From a virus (lineage: Duplodnaviria; Heunggongvirae; Uroviricota; Caudoviricetes): 34,736 nucleotides of DNA. Shown here one piece after another: positions 14,480 to 28,264 of the stretch. Numbering within the stretch: the first letter of the stretch is position 1; the number at the start of each line of letters is the position of its first letter. The stretch lies in the IMG/VR virus record IMGVR_UViG_2734482783_000005; one strand, written 5' to 3'. Made by a program: the position numbers and the translations under genes. Under the pieces are notes generated by a model. That model had not been told where the DNA came from. It did not search any database and worked only from the letters and a program-made list of their open reading frames with translations.

Positions 14480-14941
14480 CTATCTGCACTGCTCATTAAT
14501 ATACTTCTGGGTTCCTTCCAGTTGTTTTTGCATCGTGATCAGCCTCTCTCTGAGGGTGAAATAATCCCGTTCAGCGGTGTCTGCCAGTCGGGGGGAGGCT
14601 GCATTATCCACGCCGGAGGCGGTGGTGGCTTCACGCACTGACTGACAGACTGCTTTGATGTGCAACCGACGACGACCAGCGGCAACATCATCACGCAGAG
14701 CATCATTTTCAGCTTTCGCATCAGCTAACTCCTTCGTGTATTTTGCATCGAGCGCAGCAACATCACGCTGACGCATCTGCATGTCAGTAATTGCCGCGTT
14801 CGCCAGCTTCAGTTCTCTGGCATTTTTGTCGCGCTGGGCTTTGTAGGTAATGGCGTTATCACGGTAATGATTAACAGCCCATGACAGGCCGACGATGATG
14901 CAGATAACCAGAGCGGAGATAATCGCGGTTACTCTGTTCAT
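14480..14941 (-). CDS. Rz: Spanin, inner-membrane subunit Rz (153 aa from the internal Met)
   Basis: [80 protein letters not shown]...; N-terminal TM helix plus coiled coil; lambda Rz. Confidence 0.9.
14539..14721 (-). CDS. Rz1: Spanin, outer-membrane lipoprotein Rz1 (60 aa), embedded in the +1 frame of Rz
   Basis: [60 protein letters not shown]; lipobox VVGC and Pro-rich body; lambda Rz1. Confidence 0.85.
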
Positions 14942-15435
14942 TGCTGACCCCACAAACAGATTTCACGCTCAATCTCACGACGAGTCATGAGACCTTTCCA
15001 TTGCTTACCGCCAGCATATGTCCAGCGACGTAGCTGATCACATGCGCCTTTGATATCGCCCTGGTTTATTTTGCGAAGAAGCGTCGATGTTCTGAAATTG
15101 CCAGCACCCACGTTGTAAACGAATGAGTAAAGAGCGCCGCGCATTGTTTCCGGTATATCGACTTTGATGTACGGGTTAATTTGTCTGGCGACCGTGGCAA
15201 GGTCTTTATTCAGGAGGGCTTTGCATTCTGCTTTGGTATACGTTTTACCGAGCATGATGTCTTTTCCTGTATGCCCGTGACATACAGTCCATACACCAAC
15301 AATATCTTTATATGGTATGTAGCTGACACCTTCCAGACCATCGTCACCACTCGGACCAGTGATGAGCACAGACGCTATGGCAACAGCCCCACCACCAATA
15401 GCAGCTGCTACAGCCTTGCGTAATGATGGCGACAT
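14938..15435 (-). CDS. R: SAR endolysin (phage 21 R-type, T4-lysozyme/GH24 fold), 165 aa
   Basis: [85 protein letters not shown]...; Gly/Ala-rich N-terminal signal-anchor-release segment followed by a lysozyme domain. Not the lambda R transglycosylase. Confidence 0.9.
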
Positions 15436-15650
15436 TATTCACCTCTCGCAGCCTTACGCTTATCTTCTTTAATCTTGAAATAAAGGTTTGTCAGATAAGT
15501 GAGAAAACCCAACACAAGGCTTCCAAGCACTCCAATCGCCGCCCACTGTGACGGACTGACCTGATCAAGCCACTGTAAAAACCAGTAGCCAGCACTGCCT
15601 GCAGAGGTGCCGTAGGCAATGCCCGTTGTTAACTTGTCCATGGATTTCAT
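15435..15650 (-). CDS. S: Pinholin (phage 21 S-type, class II holin), 71 aa with dual-start motif
   Basis: [71 protein letters not shown]; two TM helices; Met1 and Met4 give the antiholin/holin pair described for S21. Confidence 0.9.
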
Positions 15651-15725
15651 AGCCTCACCTCCGCGAATAACGGATGGTGTACACGGTTTGGAATGAAAGA
15701 GGGAAAGATACAGAAGTTACATTAG

Positions 15726-15755
15726 AAAAGAAAAACGCCAGCGATTATTCTGGCG
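15726..15755 (-). terminator. Intrinsic terminator downstream of the AraC-family gene
   Basis: Minus-strand hairpin CGCCAG/CTGGCG (plus-strand 15736..15741 pairing with 15750..15755) followed by a T-run (plus-strand A-run 15726..15735). Confidence 0.55.
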
Positions 15756-15817
15756 TAGCTGAAAGCATCATATAATCATCAAATATGAAAATTACAAAAT
15801 CATCAAAACGCATCACG

Positions 15818-16558
15818 TTACATCTTGCCTTTTTCTAAAAAAAATCTTGATGAATATTCATGGGGGGGAACACCAAAATATCTTCTGAAAACGCTTATAA
15901 AATATGACGCGCTTTCATAACCACATATTTTAGCAACTTTCCCAACAGGATAGAAATTGTAACTTAATAACCTTTCAGCCATCACCATTCGTTCTTCAAG
16001 AATTAATTTGCTAAATGATAAGCCTTCGTGTTTTAGTTTTCTTTTTAACAAACTTTCACTCAGACATAGTCTTGAAGAAATATCACAAAGTCTCCATGCT
16101 GCAGATATGTCCGAGTGAATAATAGCCTTAACTTTGCTTCCTAAACTATTAAGACACCCAAACAAAAAACTCTGAAACATTTTTTCCGAGGATAAAATAG
16201 CAAGACATGCAAATAATATTGAATTTTTAACTACAGCCGTAGTTTCACCATCACAATTCAAGCAACCTATCAAGTTCTTTAACAATGAATAGTCTGTACA
16301 GTTTACTATCAAGTATGCTGAATAAAATCTTCTTACAGAAAAAGGTGAGAGTGTATTGTTTTTAAAGAAGTCATTAACTGTTTTCTCTTCAATATCCACG
16401 ATCATTATATTATCTTTATTTGAAGAAAAGAAAACTTTTAAATTGTATTCTATAGCAACAACACTTCCTTTTTTTAGAGAGATTTTTTCTTTACCAAGCC
16501 GGATATCAAACGAGTTCAAAACCAAAATGATAGAACATATGCATGGCATATCATCCAC
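15818..16558 (-). CDS. AraC/XylS-family transcriptional regulator (cargo gene)
   Basis: 246-aa ORF with C-terminal AraC-type HTH (...KVAKICGYESASYFISVFRRYFGVPPHEYSSRF); the sequence is visibly AT-rich compared with flanking phage genes; start codon uncertain. Confidence 0.8.
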   Translation of the reverse strand: MDDMPCICSIILVLNSFDIRLGKEKISLKKGSVVAIEYNLKVFFSSNKDNIMIVDIEEKTVNDFFKNNTLSPFSVRRFYSAYLIVNCTDYSLLKNLIGCLNCDGETTAVVKNSILFACLAILSSEKMFQSFLFGCLNSLGSKVKAIIHSDISAAWRLCDISSRLCLSESLLKRKLKHEGLSFSKLILEERMVMAERLLSYNFYPVGKVAKICGYESASYFISVFRRYFGVPPHEYSSRFFLEKGKM

Positions 16559-16867
16559 CTGACATAATTAGATTTGAGTTAAGTAAGTATAGGTGGAAAT
16601 ATTAAAATTGCCATATTTTCAATGAGAAAAATCTCATTACATCATCATGAACTTTGATATTTTCTTTAAAATATTTATGTAATACTAGATTAAACAGAAC
16701 TATTTTTGGCTTGCTTGATTATTAATCATTAATTAACATATTAACATTACCTTAAGCATGAACCGAATTTTTTTACAAACTGTACAACTATAGATATCAT
16801 AGTGAAGTTTTTACGATTGTAAACATTCTCTAAGGAGAAAATCATCTTGTTGGTGCATTCCAAACGC

Positions 16868-17827
16868 CTAGTTCACCAAGAGTCTTAGAGCCAGTTCATC
16901 AGGATAGGGGTGGAAGTAATTCTGTATAAGCAAATAATCATCAGGATACTCTGCCAAGTAATGCTTCAGCAAAGTTAATGGCGCAAGAAGAGGTAGCGTG
17001 CCAGCTCGATAGTTAAGTATAACATCGCTCAACTCTTTACGCTGACGTGTATTTAAGCAGTTACTAAAATATCCCTGTATATGCATCAGCACATTCGTGT
17101 GATTTTTACGTGATGCAGGTTTTCTGAGAATCGCCATCAGCTTCTCACGATACACCTCAAAGTATGATTCAAGGTCTGCCCACTCATGTATTGCAGCCAC
17201 AAATGGCCCCATCTCTTTATAACCGGCCTGGCTATGCGCCAACAACTGAAGCTTATAACGGCTATGAAAAGCTAATAATTCCCTTCTTGATAATTTCGCT
17301 TTATAAAGATGATTGAGCTCATGTAAAGCAAATACTCTTTCAACAAAGTTTTCACGAAGCACTGGATCATGTAGTCGCCCATCCTCTTCAACCGGTAGCC
17401 AGGAAAACCTTTCCATCAACGTGCTCGTAAATAGTCCCACTCCATCTTTACGACCACGATTACCATTTTCATCATATACACGCACGCGTTCCATACCACA
17501 GCTAGGAGATTTTGCACAAACCACAAATCCCGATACATCCTTTAATTTGTCAAGATAAGAACGACTAAACTCTGTCATTTTCTCTGTAACATCCTCATTC
17601 TGGTCGTGGCTGAAACACATCCGTATATTTCCTTGCGCCGAGCGAACAAGACGTAGAGCAGGACGCGGAACTGGAAGCCCTATAGCCATTTCCGGACATA
17701 CTGGTTTGAATGTTACCCATTCCAGTAATTTGTCCATTAAAAAGCTAGCTCTTTTGTGACCACCATCAAAACGGACAGAAGAACCGGCCAAACAACCACT
17801 GATCCCAACGACAGGTTTTTTTATCAT
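16868..17827 (-). CDS. DUF523 (TudS-type [4Fe-4S] desulfidase) fused to DUF1722; RudS-like thiouridine desulfidase candidate (319 aa)
   Basis: N-terminus MIKKPVVGISGCLAGSSVRFDGGHKRASF has the DUF523 signature (G-x-S-x-C-L-x-G...VR-x-DGGHK); further Cys at VCPEM and CAKSPSCGMERV; the C-terminal half resembles YbgA/DUF1722. Confidence 0.7.
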   Translation of the reverse strand: MIKKPVVGISGCLAGSSVRFDGGHKRASFLMDKLLEWVTFKPVCPEMAIGLPVPRPALRLVRSAQGNIRMCFSHDQNEDVTEKMTEFSRSYLDKLKDVSGFVVCAKSPSCGMERVRVYDENGNRGRKDGVGLFTSTLMERFSWLPVEEDGRLHDPVLRENFVERVFALHELNHLYKAKLSRRELLAFHSRYKLQLLAHSQAGYKEMGPFVAAIHEWADLESYFEVYREKLMAILRKPASRKNHTNVLMHIQGYFSNCLNTRQRKELSDVILNYRAGTLPLLAPLTLLKHYLAEYPDDYLLIQNYFHPYPDELALRLLVN

Positions 17828-18019
17828 TGCCTACCCCTTGACTAATTCATTAACAGGTTAACAGTGTAGTACACGACCTAAACTGCCTTTCTGCCGTCAT
17901 CACTGACAATTTTTTTGTTATGGACTATTCCTAATATAGTAGGAAAGTTCTTTAAGTGATCGGTAGTAATCATCTATCTTTAATACTTACTCTCAACTAT
18001 CAAAAGTACAGGATATATT

Positions 18020-18544
18020 ATGAAGTTATGGCCTGTGTTGACTGGCATTGCACTCTCTTTCACTCTGATAGCATGTAAGGCCCCGACACCACCTAAAGGT
18101 GTGCAGCCGATTACAAATTTTGACACCAACCGCTACCTCGGAAAATGGTATGAAATAGCTCGGCTTGAGAACCGATTTGAACGTGGTCTGGAACAGGTCA
18201 GCGCCACTTATGGGAAACGGAACGACGGAGGGATTAGTGTACTTAATCGTGGATATGACCCAACGAAAAACAAATGGAGCGAGAGCGAAGGTAAAGCATA
18301 CTTTACAGGAGATAATACAACTGCAGCGTTGAAGGTTTCGTTTTTTGGCCCCTTCTATGGTGGCTATAATGTAATCAAACTGGATGATGAGTATAAGTAT
18401 GCTCTTGTCAGTGGTCCGAACAGAGAATACCTATGGATTCTGGCACGGACTCCAACTATTCCAGATAATGTAAAAGCAGACTATGTGCGTACTGCTCAAA
18501 AATTGGGATTCAATGTCAATGAACTATTATGGGTCAAACAATAA
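18020..18544 (+). CDS. Bacterial lipocalin Blc-like outer-membrane lipoprotein (174 aa)
   Basis: MKLWPVLTGIALSFTLIACKAPTPPKGVQPITNFDTNRYLGKWYEIARLENRFERGLEQVSATYGKRNDGGISVLNRGYDP...KAYFTGDNTTAALKVSFFGPFYGGYNVIKLDDEYKYALVSGPNREYLWILARTPTI; lipobox LIAC and the lipocalin signature G-x-W-Y-E-I-A-R, closely resembling E. coli Blc. Confidence 0.85.
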   Translation: MKLWPVLTGIALSFTLIACKAPTPPKGVQPITNFDTNRYLGKWYEIARLENRFERGLEQVSATYGKRNDGGISVLNRGYDPTKNKWSESEGKAYFTGDNTTAALKVSFFGPFYGGYNVIKLDDEYKYALVSGPNREYLWILARTPTIPDNVKADYVRTAQKLGFNVNELLWVKQ

Positions 18545-18571
18545 AATACCTAACCGGATTGATACTTATTA

Positions 18572-18601
18572 GAAAAAAAAACCAGCCTTTGGGGAGGCTG
18601 G
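18572..18601 (-). terminator. Intrinsic terminator downstream of Q, candidate tR'
   Basis: Minus-strand hairpin CCAGCCT/AGGCTGG (plus-strand 18582..18588 and 18595..18601) followed by a run of nine T (plus-strand A-run 18573..18581); about 100 nt downstream of the Q stop. Confidence 0.55.
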
Positions 18602-18650
18602 CTAAATCAGGGAACAAGCTGTTATATGATCATAACTACGTTGCGATTCT

Positions 18651-18690
18651 AACATTTGAAACATTAGTCTAATGATAACCAGACAGCAAC
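18651..18690 (-). promoter_or_regulatory. Candidate late promoter PR' (-35 TTGCTG, 17-nt spacer, -10 TAATGT)
   Basis: Minus-strand reading places TTGCTG (plus 18685..18690) and TAATGT (plus 18651..18656) between the Q stop and the candidate tR'. Assigned by position and hexamer match only. Confidence 0.35.
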
Positions 18691-18701
18691 TTTTCCTTTA
18701 A

Positions 18702-19079
18702 TTATCTCAAACAATCAGCATCCATCTCCAATCTGAGATCCAACACCATCAGCATGCCCTCCACTACGCCCTCAGCTTTTTGGAGCATCCTGCCAATCCA
18801 ACAATCAGATCTACCATGCTTACGCGCAAGCGCCATAAAAGTCATGCCGCCGACATAATAGTCCACTAACAAATCATGCAAATCGCTGTTGTTATTTTTC
18901 AGACGGGCCATGCACCCGCAAATGATCATCGCGTCATCGTCACAACATTGCGGACGAGATTTTACTTTTGAAGGAATTAATCCCTTAAAACCGGCGGCAA
19001 TGGACGACCAGGTCACATCTTCATGATTATTAGCCGCCCACGCTCCCCAACGCTCAAGAACCATCTGAATATCACGCAT
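18702..19079 (-). CDS. Q: Late antitermination protein Q (non-lambda type, resembling DLP12 QuuD)
   Basis: [88 protein letters not shown]...; Cys-rich zinc-binding region; start placed at the Met with a GGAG Shine-Dalgarno (track ORF starts 5 codons earlier). Confidence 0.85.
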
Positions 19080-19301
19080 CAACTTACTCCACAAAAATCA
19101 GACCAGAACGCCAATTACAAGCAAAAATCAGCAAAACAGTATTAGTTGATTGTTATCTCTGGCTTCATACTCCTGCTCCTGTCAGTGTTTTGGCTTAATT
19201 CTTCAGTATTCGGTAATCGGTCAAAACAGAACCGGGGAAACGATATAAGCGCAGACGCCCCCAGCGGTGGCGAAGACGTTCTGCCATATAAAACTCAAAC
19301 A

Positions 19302-20254: not shown

Positions 20255-20391
20255 AGGTGAGCTGTGTAATTGAAGGTTTTTACGTCAGATTCTTTTGGGA
20301 TTGGCTTGCGTTTATTTCTGGAGCGTTTCGTTGGAAGGTATTTGCAGTTTTCGCAGATGATGTCGGTGAAACTTCGTCGCTGTCGCCTCAT
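20215..20391 (-). CDS. ninE: NinE (58 aa)
   Basis: [58 protein letters not shown] matches lambda NinE; the start ATG overlaps the stop of the upstream methyltransferase gene (ATGA). Confidence 0.8.
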
Positions 20392-20915
20392 GCCGCCCTC
20401 CTGACGCCCTGCCCGATCGCCATCAATGCCGCTTTGGATACGGTAGTAAACATCCGTCGAGGACTGATGAACGGTCGCCAAATCAGCAGCATGGAGCCTT
20501 TGCTGTTTCCCTTCTTCTCCAGCCCTGTCGATGGTTCGATAAAATTAATCCGTCCATCAGTGATAATGCGAACTTCGTCGACACTCTCCAGAGCCTTGCT
20601 GAACCATCCGACTGACATATCCTCTGGCACAAGCATAACTACCGTCTGTCGCTGTTGTATGCACTGCTCAGCGGCTTTTTCCACCCACGGCCTGATATTG
20701 CTGTACGGTGGGTTATTCCAGATTGCACCGTGGCTTACCCACTCAGAATTGAGCGCGTCGTCGGCCTCAGTTAGCCAGTGAGCACACAGAGCATTTTTGT
20801 CGCTCGCTGCCGAATCCAGCCAGAATCCAAACTCAATATCCAGTGCATCAAAAAGCCAAAGCGGCGTTTGCCAGCAGTCCTTGTCGTGTGCTGGCGTATT
20901 TGATTTGATAGTCAT
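20388..20915 (-). CDS. Phage orphan DNA N6-adenine methyltransferase (about 175 aa)
   Basis: [73 protein letters not shown]...; NPPY catalytic motif; start ATG overlaps the ninB stop (ATGA). Confidence 0.8.
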
Positions 20916-21352
20916 GCAGCCCGATCTCCCCATCTCGCTTTCCACTCCAGAGCCAGTCTCGCTTCGTCTGACCACTTAACGCCACGCTCTGTACCGAATG
21001 CCTGTATAAGCTCTAATAGCTCCGCAAATTCGCCTACACGCATCCTGCTGGTTGACTGGCCTATTACCACAAAGCCATTCCCGGCAAGGTTAGGAACAAC
21101 ATCCTGCTGCTTTAATGCTGCGGTAAACACACACTTCCAGCTTTCTGCATCCAGCCAGCGACCATGCCATTCAACCTGACGAGAGACGTCACCTAAGCAG
21201 GCCCATAGCTTCCTGTTTTGGTCTAAGCTGCGGTTGCGTTCCTGAATGGTTACTACGATTGGTTTGGTTGGGTCTGGAAGGATTTGCTGTACTGCGTGAA
21301 TAGCGTTTTGCTGATGTGCTGGAGATCGAATTTCAAAGGTTAGTTTTTTCAT
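20912..21352 (-). CDS. ninB: NinB recombination protein (146 aa)
   Basis: [146 protein letters not shown]; lambda NinB. Confidence 0.9.
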   Translation of the reverse strand: MKKLTFEIRSPAHQQNAIHAVQQILPDPTKPIVVTIQERNRSLDQNRKLWACLGDVSRQVEWHGRWLDAESWKCVFTAALKQQDVVPNLAGNGFVVIGQSTSRMRVGEFAELLELIQAFGTERGVKWSDEARLALEWKARWGDRAA

Positions 21353-23996: not shown

Positions 23997-24106
23997 ATGC
24001 CCTCCATAGTAACCTCGAATAAAAAATACAATATGTACTTTCCAAATACAAGCAAAAATACACATTGTGCATGGATGGTTCCAGTACAGAGCGTAATAAT
24101 AAGGAC
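23997..24106. promoter_or_regulatory. Divergent immunity control region (OR with PR/PRM) between cro and cI
   Basis: 110-bp AT-rich intergenic region containing several short palindromes (TACAATATGTA at 24027..24037; CACATTGTG) and repeated AAATACA motifs; operators are inferred by position only. Confidence 0.5.
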
Positions 24107-24766
24107 ATGAAAATGAAATGGTATGAACTGGCTAGATCCAGAATGAAAGAGCTCGGCATAACTCAAGAGAAGTTAGCCGAAGAGCTAGGTATGACGCAGG
24201 GTGGGATTGGACACTGGTTGCGCGGATCTCGTCATCCATCTCTTAGTGATATTGGTGTGGTGTTTAAATACCTTGGTATTGATAACATATCATTCAACCA
24301 CGACGGGACATTTTCACCTGTTGGCGAATACTCATCGGCCCCAGTTAAAAAACAATATGAGTACCCTGTATTTTCTCATGTTCAGGCTGGGATGTTCTCT
24401 CCAGAACTCAGAACCTTTACCAAAGGCGATGCGGAGAGATTGGTAAGCACAACCAAAAAAGCCAGTGACTCTGCATTCTGGCTTGAGGTTGAAGGTAACT
24501 CAATGACCGCACCAACAGGTTCCAAACCCAGTTTTCCTGACGGGATGTTAATTCTGGTTGACCCTGAGCAAGCTGTTGAGCCCGGCGATTTCTGCATAGC
24601 CAGACTTGGTGGTGATGAATTTACCTTCAAGAAACTGATCAGGGATAGCGGTCAGGTGTTTCTACAGCCACTAAACCCACAATACCCAATGATCCCATGC
24701 AATGAGAGTTGTTCCGTTGTGGGGAAAGTTATCGCTAGTCAGTGGCCTGAAGAGACGTTTGGGTAA
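24107..24766 (+). CDS. cI: CI prophage repressor: non-lambda N-terminal HTH domain fused to a lambda-type C-terminal LexA-like (S24) autocleavage/dimerisation domain
   Basis: N-terminus [45 protein letters not shown] is unlike lambda CI; the C-terminus ...[135 protein letters not shown] matches the lambda CI C-terminal domain. AAGGA Shine-Dalgarno before the chosen start. Confidence 0.9.
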
Positions 24767-24838: not shown

Positions 24839-25741
24839 ATGAGCCAAAATCTTGATTCAACACTAGAAACATACATTTCTTGGCAGTTAGAGCAATTTAA
24901 AAATAACTTTTTCCCAAGCTGCGACGTCATAGCGTACTACGGTGGTATCTTTCCATGGTCAAAAGAAGTTTACCAACCAAAACTTGAGGCTATTGGGGAG
25001 ATGGCTAACAGTCGTACCAATAGATTTCTAGTTATTATACTCAATACAAATGGTGGCTCTGTTGAGTCTGTGGAAAAAATGGTAGAAATTACAAGGCATT
25101 TCTATCAAGAGGTATATTTTATCATTCCAGATATGGCCATGTCGGCAGGCACAATATGGTGTATGTCTGGAGATAAAATTTACATGAACTATGCTTCTTC
25201 ATTAGGCCCCATTGACCCTCAAGTGCAATCCTCTGACGGTAAATGGGTTCCTGCTTTGGGATACCTTGATAAAGTTGAAGAAATGATTACTAAATCCAGA
25301 GAAGGAACCATTACCCAAGCTGAACTAATGATGCTTAGTCAGTTAGATCTTGCGCACTTAAGGAGATACGAGCAAGCCAGAGAGCTATCAATAGACTTGC
25401 TTAAGAAGTGGCTTGTAGAGTATAAATTCAGAGAGTGGACGGTTCATCAAGGTAACACAAAACGAGGAAAGCTAGTTTCCAAGAGGGAAAAAGAAGCAAG
25501 AGCTAAAATGATCGCTACCGCTCTTAGTGACAACGGAAAGTGGCATTCTCACGGAAGAACGATAGGAATAAATACTCTTATCAATGACTTAAGAATTAAA
25601 GTAGAAGACTTTACATACGACAAAGATTTTAGCATGGCGTTAAAAAATCTGCACAACGTCATTAATGAATACATGTATAAGACAAATCGACAGGTTCTTG
25701 TTCTGTCTTCATTCCCCTTCTCAGAACAAAGTGAGTCATAA
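24839..25741 (+). CDS. ClpP/SppA-fold (S49/SDH-like) serine-peptidase-domain protein, 300 aa, in the cI-downstream slot
   Basis: ...RFLVIILNTNGGSVESVEKMVEITRHFYQEVYFIIPDMAMSAGTIWCMSGDKIYMNYASSLGPIDPQ... aligns by eye with the ClpP core (LNSPGGSV ... GQAASMGA), placing a candidate nucleophile Ser in MSAGT. AT-rich; C-terminal half Lys/Glu-rich and helical-looking; no TM segment seen. Confidence 0.7.
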   Translation: MSQNLDSTLETYISWQLEQFKNNFFPSCDVIAYYGGIFPWSKEVYQPKLEAIGEMANSRTNRFLVIILNTNGGSVESVEKMVEITRHFYQEVYFIIPDMAMSAGTIWCMSGDKIYMNYASSLGPIDPQVQSSDGKWVPALGYLDKVEEMITKSREGTITQAELMMLSQLDLAHLRRYEQARELSIDLLKKWLVEYKFREWTVHQGNTKRGKLVSKREKEARAKMIATALSDNGKWHSHGRTIGINTLINDLRIKVEDFTYDKDFSMALKNLHNVINEYMYKTNRQVLVLSSFPFSEQSES

Positions 25742-28027: not shown

Positions 28028-28099
28028 GTGCGGTTTTACCGCATACCAATAACGCTTCACTCGAGGCGTTTTTCGTTATGTATAAATAAGGAGCACACC

Positions 28100-28264
28100 A
28101 TGCAATATGCCATTGCAGGGTGGCCTGTTGCTGGCTGCCCTTCCGAATCTTTACTTGAACGAATCACCCGTAAATTACGTGACGGATGGAAACGCCTTAT
28201 CAACATACTTAATCAGCCAGGAGTCCCAAAGAATGGATCAAACACTTATGGCTATCCAGACTAA
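28100..28264 (+). CDS. cIII: CIII, inhibitor of FtsH that stabilises CII (54 aa)
   Basis: [54 protein letters not shown]; lambda CIII. Confidence 0.9.
   Translation: MQYAIAGWPVAGCPSESLLERITRKLRDGWKRLINILNQPGVPKNGSNTYGYPD

Follow-up and report, generated by a model that had tools for sequence, protein, structure and literature searches.

The 34,736-nucleotide virus record IMGVR_UViG_2734482783_000005 (Caudoviricetes; "the window" below is this whole stretch) is a lambda-like prophage presented in reverse orientation, and between its late-gene antiterminator gene Q and its holin gene it carries a 3.06-kb AT-rich cargo (or "moron") cassette of three genes, at 15662..18719. We consider it probable that this cassette joins rudS, whose product would erase 4-thiouridine (s4U) from tRNA, and the lipocalin gene blc, the two captured without their MerR regulator, to the gene of an acid-resistance regulator of the PatE/Psr/GadW clade (here called araC, after its family). 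A phage-borne tRNA s4U eraser has already been published for exactly this protein and is no new category; what is new here is the clade placement of the regulator, the reading of blc and rudS as one captured unit, and the presence of rudS in about 20% of complete Escherichia coli genomes. The original prediction for this region, made from the letters alone, missed both the prior publication and the clade to which the regulator belongs.

The Q-to-holin slot and its cargo

The genes of the slot and its flanks are as follows (aa, amino acids):

18702..19094, minus strand: late-gene antiterminator Q (PF06530 Phage_antitermQ, E 2.5e-51; Q-like in the annotation of phage 1H12)
18020..18544, plus strand: blc-like outer-membrane lipocalin lipoprotein, 174 aa (PF08212, E 2.2e-43), antisense to late transcription
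16868..17827, minus strand: rudS, TudS(DUF523)-DUF1722 [4Fe-4S] tRNA 4-thiouridine desulfidase, 319 aa (from Pfam matches and identity to RudS_vir)
15818..16549, minus strand: AraC/XylS-family regulator of the PatE/Psr/GadW clade, 243 aa (PF12833, E 2.9e-15; PF00165, E 1.7e-12)
14480..15650, minus strand: lysis cassette (PF04971, E 3e-35; PF00959, E 1.3e-45; 1H12 annotation), made up of the P21-type holin (15435..15650), endolysin (14938..15435) and Rz/Rz1 (14480..14953), all on the minus strand

Low coordinates of the window hold the head genes and Nu1, followed by bor, Rz, endolysin and the P21-type holin, and beyond Q (the start of which is annotated at 19079 in related records) come the nin region, O/P, cro/cI, the lambda cIII thermoregulator (28087-28145) and, at the far end, the integrase. 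This thermoregulator was the sole match of an Rfam scan of the whole window, which found no RNA family within the cassette. Read on the minus strand from Q to the holin gene, the order is a candidate tR' terminator, blc (on the plus strand), a 192-bp divergent spacer, rudS, a 318-bp AT-rich spacer, araC and a terminator. The two minus-strand open reading frames (ORFs) that the original prediction had described as a pair of same-strand cargo genes were both found where it placed them, but it had overlooked a third gene, blc, whose product matches NF007786 "outer membrane lipoprotein Blc" with 315.5 bits (cut-off 267) and which has been recorded as a moron of over 50% of infant-gut lambdas (PMC6969025). 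The AT-richness that it had noticed is likewise real, with a GC content of 0.30-0.32 across 16001-17000 and of about 0.41-0.42 across 17001-18000 (0.30-0.42 for the segment) against 0.53-0.62 in the head genes.

The borders of the cassette are seen by comparison with the porin-carrying phage ev243, whose homology to the window ends at 15661, 11 nucleotides (nt) upstream of the holin ATG, and restarts at 18720, 18 nt ahead of the Q stop codon. Because the homology breaks at these two positions, the pR'/tR' region belongs to the exchangeable 3.06-kb unit. An OmpD/NmpC porin gene occupies the same slot in related phages whose flanking Q and holin sequences are 87-95% identical, and also in DLP12 of K-12, in line with the earlier claim that this is the place between tR' and the lysis cassette where Stx or porin genes usually sit. 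The segment thus has what characterises a moron, namely a position between Q/pR'-tR' and the holin gene, a swappable cargo and an atypical composition. A 3.8-kb region is 99.7-99.8% identical to eleven records of isolated infant-gut lambda-like phages, including Escherichia phage 1H12, whose backbone is 98.8% identical and in which the neighbours of the cargo and the slot are the same; these carriers are viable isolated temperate phages. E. coli NWU_3 matches 3.8 kb of the window at 100%, but with gene annotation that runs parallel to the window only between about 15.2 and 20.7 kb it was rejected as the source. In PADLOC, neither RudS nor the AraC-like protein nor Blc matched a defence system.

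RudS, a TudS-DUF1722 fusion

The rudS product is identical (319/319 residues) to gp66 of phage 1H12 (H3V29_gp66), which Jamontas et al. (NAR 2024) synthesised as RudS_vir when they gave the name RudS to TudS-DUF1722 fusions (PMC11417400). The domain assignment agrees with the DUF523-DUF1722 fusion of 319 aa that had been read from the sequence: PF04463 ("2-thiouracil desulfurase"/DUF523) matches residues 7-149 with an E-value of 3.6e-40 (137.7 bits, cut-off 34.7), and DUF1722 (PF08349, E 1.3e-40) is fused C-terminally at residues 192-309, the full model (1-117) being covered. The PGAP label "YbgA family protein" under-describes this fusion, as the YbgA model PRK10167 matches residues 160-315 only and its equivalog cut-off is missed (189.6 bits versus 237).

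The conserved Cys and DGGHK motif named in the original prediction are present as C12, C44 and C110 (the Cys12/44/110 given for RudS_vir in Table 1 of PMC11417400) and as D21-K25. Across 72 homologs, with identity down to 45%, C12, C44, C110, D21, H24 and K25 are invariant and G22 is the most frequent residue at its column (63/72). The three Cys ligands align with those of TudS (PDB 6Z92) together with E46, R55, S107 and S109, the presumed catalytic residues, of which the first three are invariant in the 72 homologs, the position of S109 being Ser in 67 and Thr in 5. By their constant offset from the Cys ligands, E46, S107, S109 and R55 would correspond to E51, S111, S113 and R60 of RudS_KT, in which mutating Glu51, Ser111, Ser113, Arg60 or the three Cys ligands abolished activity (PMC11417400). 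In the DUF1722 domain, S239-R240 is retained (S in 66/72, R in 71/72), its pairing with the tRNA-contacting S243 and R244 of RudS_KT being by offset only.

That fusions of this type remove sulfur from 4-thiouridine in tRNA, as the original prediction had it, is borne out for the RudS family and for the identical protein: all six RudS variants tested, RudS_vir among them, reduced tRNA s4U on overexpression in E. coli, and the growth delay induced by ultraviolet A (UVA) was diminished by overexpression of RudS_KT (PMC11417400). A [4Fe-4S]-dependent change of tRNA s4U into U is thus published for a protein identical to this one.

A regulator of the PatE/Psr/GadW clade

The second gene read in the original prediction does encode an AraC-family protein, with a C-terminal AraC-type double helix-turn-helix (PF12833, PF00165). 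Translation most likely begins with the ATG at 16549, preceded by a conserved ribosome-binding site (RBS, AGGTGGA), rather than with the GTG at 16558. The protein is identical (243/243) to 1H12 gp67, a protein that carries only the label "hypothetical". Its full-length identity is highest to E. coli Sakai ECs_0287 (53% over 235 aa), the AraC-type gene of prophage Sp1 at thrW, and to PsrA (ECs_1087; 40% over 235 aa), and is lower to GadW (35%), AppY (30%) and YdeO (28%). PatE, PsrA and PsrB are encoded by prophages, activate gadE/hdeAB acid resistance and indirectly repress the type III secretion system (PMC10877973). PsrA in Sakai Sp4 lies a short distance downstream of Q, in the slot that araC occupies here, and homologs with 30-52% identity are found in other lambdoid phages at other positions without rudS.

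On these comparisons we class the protein as a new, uncharacterised member of the known PatE/Psr clade of prophage regulators and not as an ortholog of PatE or PsrA. Its role is most likely lysogenic conversion, acting on the acid-stress regulation of the host and not on rudS.

Origin of the cassette

We searched for a donor of the phage rudS in one genome per bacterial species; none was close, and no donor can be named. The best chromosomal relatives in this set share 76% aa identity and belong to Citrobacter and Klebsiella. The arrangement blc(-)<->merR(+)-[uraH]-rudS(+) was found in 8 enterobacterial chromosomes and in one E. coli plasmid copy that is 66% identical, and a blc<->rudS pair that is directly divergent, as in the phage, was found at 10 loci (9 in Kluyvera spp. 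and 1 in an Enterobacteriaceae metagenome-assembled genome, MAG); merR-rudS occurs in about a dozen further loci. The MerR of the chromosomal modules is MlrA-type. In K. pneumoniae, rudS comes after CFA-synthase/DUF2878/DUF3833 genes. These gene types accompany photolyase clusters. Light-responsive contexts of rudS are described in the RudS paper (PMC11417400). Synteny suggests that blc and rudS were probably taken up together, as one divergent pair, from a stress/light module of enterobacterial chromosomes with the order blc<->(MlrA-type merR)-[uraH]-rudS, and that MerR was lost.

The gene araC adjoins rudS solely in phage-type copies and never stands next to a chromosomal rudS; it has a lower GC content than rudS (0.30 versus 0.42) and has diverged faster (83% versus 93% aa identity). 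We conclude that araC presumably was an acquisition separate from that of blc-rudS.

The plasmid copy lies on the E. coli multiresistance plasmid NZ_CP010243.1 (33484-36228), where a rudS with 66% nt and 72% aa identity is flanked by IS26 in an arrangement of the ancestral type, lipocalin<->MlrA-type MerR-uraH-rudS. Prophage-type cargo also appeared on two short MAG contigs assigned to 'Candidatus Nanosynbacter' (Saccharibacteria), one with rudS (88%) and araC (82%) (L057) and the other with blc (97%) and rudS (92%) (L076); these are almost certainly binning contamination.

Distribution and selection

A full-length rudS was found in 1111 of 5426 complete E. coli genomes (~20%), a full-length araC in 996 and the whole module in 941. 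By identity at the best place, 110 matching records have a rudS of at least 99% and 1024 one of 90-95%; 61 rudS matches in the E. coli collection are on plasmids, examples of which have about 66% identity. Each exact cargo protein occurs on at least 1000 contigs. E. coli has been said to lack RudS (PMC11417400; repeated in a 2026 review), which is true of K-12 and not of about one fifth of the sequenced strains.

One example of the ~92% allele was opened and proved to be a decayed prophage at ybhC (att-lambda), in which Q is lost and blc is truncated by IS1 while rudS and araC are intact. Between the alleles, the ratio of nonsynonymous to synonymous divergence (dN/dS) is 0.11 for rudS, 0.23-0.25 for araC and 0.08 for blc, and dS itself is 0.19-0.39. 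The low dN/dS and the intact rudS and araC of the decayed prophage argue that selection preserves the function of the cargo genes, probably in the lysogen.

Predicted transcription of the cassette

The following non-coding features were recognised:

18604..18701, minus strand: candidate pR'/Q-loading region between the Q stop codon and tR' (position inferred)
18572..18603, minus strand: candidate tR', an intrinsic terminator with a 9-bp stem (5 GC; stem 18603..18580) and T9
17828..18019, between the divergent genes: blc<->rudS intergenic region with a promoter-like site facing rudS, TTGAGA-16-GATGAT (17996..17969), and the rudS RBS
16550..16867, minus strand: AT-rich rudS-araC spacer with TTTACA-16-TATGAT (16823..16796), ATGGCA-17-TATACT (16614..16586) and the RBS AGGTGGA
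15725..15756, minus strand: intrinsic terminator after the regulator gene, with a 7-bp stem (5 GC; 15756..15735) and a T-tract

The candidate tR' lies 100 nt downstream of the Q stop (-14.2 kcal/mol, z = -3.45) and is conserved in phage IdasGreatGrand, as is the pR' region, which has an extended -10-like TGtTAGAAT and a GATAAT match at 18730..18701 and is different in ev243. The terminator after araC (-11.3 kcal/mol, z = -2.69), whose stem is identical in IdasGreatGrand, had been given in the original prediction as 15726..15755 and was found there, with its stem at 15756..15735 followed by the T-tract; the scan detected no terminator separating rudS from araC. The blc<->rudS spacer is largely conserved between the two phage alleles and has partial similarity to the blc<->rudS spacer of Kluyvera. 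The rudS-araC spacer has diverged between the alleles by substitutions and indels, with conserved islands at TTTACA-16-TATGAT, at the TATACT block (~16590) and at the RBS/ATG. With its predicted promoter-like sites, araC would be laid out as a classic moron, the gene standing between a promoter and a terminator. In number, such sites are not in excess over shuffled sequences (terminator-like 4 versus 2.6±1.7; promoter-like 13 versus 10.2±3.4), and what speaks for an individual site is its position, folding energy and conservation, not how many such sites there are.

Since the promoter scan found no promoter-like site between the araC terminator and the holin gene, and since the carrier phages are viable, Q-modified polymerase must cross rudS and araC in sense to reach S-R-Rz. 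From this architecture RudS and the regulator would be obligatory parts of the late mRNA, and late synthesis of RudS, as supposed in the original prediction, is expected from its place in this transcript and from its RBS (AAGGGG, 6 nt before the ATG), which rates as good.

Nothing pointed to direct SOS control, a LexA-box scan (CTGT-N8-ACAG, one mismatch allowed) giving 14 matches against 11.2 expected, with the sole match of the cassette (17799-17814, one mismatch) inside the rudS coding sequence and not at a predicted promoter. A repeat search over 15600-18800 returned only short chance-level matches and no operator-like motif common to the regions upstream of rudS/blc and of araC.

Two further observations concern the late control region. 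On the late strand, the same tail TTTT(C/T)TTTTCTAAT comes after tR' and after the araC terminator (15721-15734, 18568-18581), and could be a trace of the insertion of the cassette beside an original tR', or chance. Q proteins that are ~92% identical precede unrelated pR'/tR' regions in blc-rudS and in porin phages (18604-18760 of the window; 2724-2976 of L078), and the Q-loading site seems to move with the cargo and not with Q.

Proposed function and alternative explanations

In the explanation that we favour, the TudS domain of RudS turns 4-thiouridine at tRNA position 8 into uridine while the DUF1722 domain holds the tRNA, the blc lipocalin would be transcribed divergently from rudS, and the regulator, by homology, would most likely activate host gadE and hdeAB in the lysogen. 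There, each cargo gene would rely on a promoter of its own, and transcription of araC would stop at the terminator behind this gene, short of the holin gene; upon induction, Q-modified RNA polymerase starting at pR' would read through tR', blc in antisense, rudS and araC in sense and the araC terminator into S-R-Rz. The benefit of RudS is a matter of speculation: loss of the UVA-photosensitive s4U8 may keep translation going under sunlight or UV stress, and the growth delay and stringent response that come from s4U8-C13 cross-links may be avoided.

Several observations weigh against this explanation. The tRNA desulfidation by RudS_vir was relatively weak for its high level of soluble protein, and among the RudS tested it gave a uracil auxotroph the shortest lag on free 4-thiouracil (PMC11417400), so that either could be the preferred natural substrate of RudS_vir. 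The regulator is far below the NCBIfam equivalog cut-offs for its relatives (YdeO, 112.7 bits versus 348; GadX, 98.9 versus 500), its supposed targets are those of proteins that are only 40-53% identical, and the equation of ECs_0287 with PatE (Z0321) is itself our inference from position and from a reported early-stationary-phase induction. Finally, with 30-42% GC, the cassette could be silenced by H-NS in the lysogen.

A more ambitious role for RudS is as a late host-takeover function that erases s4U8 from host tRNAs upon induction by UV or sunlight and thereby couples phage yield to the eraser; phage protein synthesis would then not be throttled by s4U8-C13 cross-links, uncharged tRNA or a ppGpp/stringent response. 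We regard this as unlikely, at perhaps one chance among several. Another possibility is that the AraC-like protein is a dedicated local regulator of rudS, blc or both that has replaced the MlrA-type MerR, the whole forming one regulated unit. The genes rudS and araC adjoin in all phage-type copies seen and occur in similar numbers of genomes (1111 for rudS and 996 for araC), the ancestral MerR is absent from the phage cassette, and the scan detected no terminator between the two genes. However, chromosomal rudS is never linked to this type of AraC, and PatE, PsrA/B and GadW, the closest relatives that have been characterised, have their targets among distant host genes; lambdoid phages without rudS have homologs of 30-52% identity in other slots, the upstream regions of rudS/blc and araC have no repeat or operator-like motif in common, and the faster divergence of araC (83% versus 93% aa) suggests a separate history. 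Local control is therefore doubtful in our judgement, with odds well on the low side.

The weak tRNA desulfidation of RudS_vir relative to its soluble level and its short lag on 4-thiouracil (PMC11417400), together with the fully conserved TudS active site, would also fit an enzyme used mainly like TudS for salvage, releasing uracil nucleotides for phage replication from the free 4-thiouracil or 4-thio-UMP of RNA turnover, with tRNA erasure as a secondary activity. Against this stand the findings that no RudS supported growth on 4-thiouracil as TudS does, that DUF1722 is kept with its S239-R240, and that the whole of rudS is under purifying selection, and we give salvage as the main role only a slim chance. 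Lastly, the genes might be silent hitchhikers, shut down by H-NS in the lysogen, of no consequence for lytic growth and frequent only because their carrier prophage is. Their low GC would agree with this, as would the isolated phages with the same flanks that carry a porin gene instead, which implies that the cassette is dispensable for the phage cycle. Yet dN/dS between the alleles is only 0.08-0.25 at a dS of about 0.2-0.4, the rudS and araC ORFs have survived whole in a degraded prophage where Q is gone and IS1 has cut into blc, promoter and terminator blocks are conserved within diverged spacers, and a sense placement in an obligatory late transcript guarantees transcription upon induction; we find this account very improbable.

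The constant neighbour of rudS, an uncharacterised PatE/Psr-clade regulator common in commensal and clinical E. coli, could alter acid tolerance. With rudS in 1111 of 5426 genomes, s4U and near-UV physiology derived from K-12 may not hold for many natural isolates, and, should the host-takeover role be true, about one fifth of natural E. coli would differ from K-12 in s4U dynamics. The sense orientation of rudS within the obligatory late transcript makes a role in the phage cycle directly testable.

Other genes of the window

Three genes outside the slot deserve mention. At 31403-32704 (minus strand), a 29-31% GC island near xis/int encodes a 433-aa GGDEF diguanylate cyclase (PF00990, E 7.1e-38), which resembles another AT-rich moron and could alter cyclic di-GMP (c-di-GMP) signalling in the lysogen. 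Directly downstream of the cI-type repressor gene (24065-24766), a 300-aa ORF for a ClpP-like SDH-type serine protease/NfeD-like protein (24839-25741, plus strand) occupies the position of rexAB in lambda and had no match in PADLOC. The nin region contains a gene for a phage Dam-type N6-adenine methyltransferase (20388-20975, minus strand; PF05869, E 9.4e-65).

Comparison with known systems

The closest parallels to the cassette as a whole are the nmpC/ompD porin morons of DLP12 and related lambdoid phages and the stx genes of Stx phages, with which it shares the slot between Q/pR'-tR' and the holin gene. The porin gene is antisense to late transcription, like blc here; the cargo differs from both, and two of its three genes are in sense and hence in the late mRNA, as stx is. 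The regulator is compared with PatE and PsrA/PsrB of enterohaemorrhagic E. coli (EHEC), all of which are, like it, prophage-borne and AT-rich; its homology to the presumed PatE (ECs_0287) and to PsrA spans the whole protein and takes in the N-terminal "CS(V/I)I" start. Unlike them, it occurs mostly in non-EHEC E. coli and not beside effector genes or tRNAs.

At the protein level there is no difference between the rudS product and RudS_vir (1H12 gp66), the gene being here in a prophage within a bacterial chromosome window and there in the genome of an isolated virion. RudS_KT (Pseudomonas putida PP_0741) and RudS_ST (Salmonella STM1389/ORF319) share with it the TudS-DUF1722 layout, the three Cys ligands and the catalytic Glu/Ser/Ser/Arg residues, and RudS_ST has the same length and Cys positions; both are chromosomal, MerR/LitR-controlled and set in light-responsive contexts of the photolyase type, whereas the phage copy is without a MerR regulator. 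TudS, the stand-alone DUF523 thiouracil desulfidase (PDB 6Z92), has the active site and cluster ligands in common with the rudS product but has no DUF1722 domain, acts on free thiouracil/s4UMP and matches it only weakly in sequence (E 8.9e-5).

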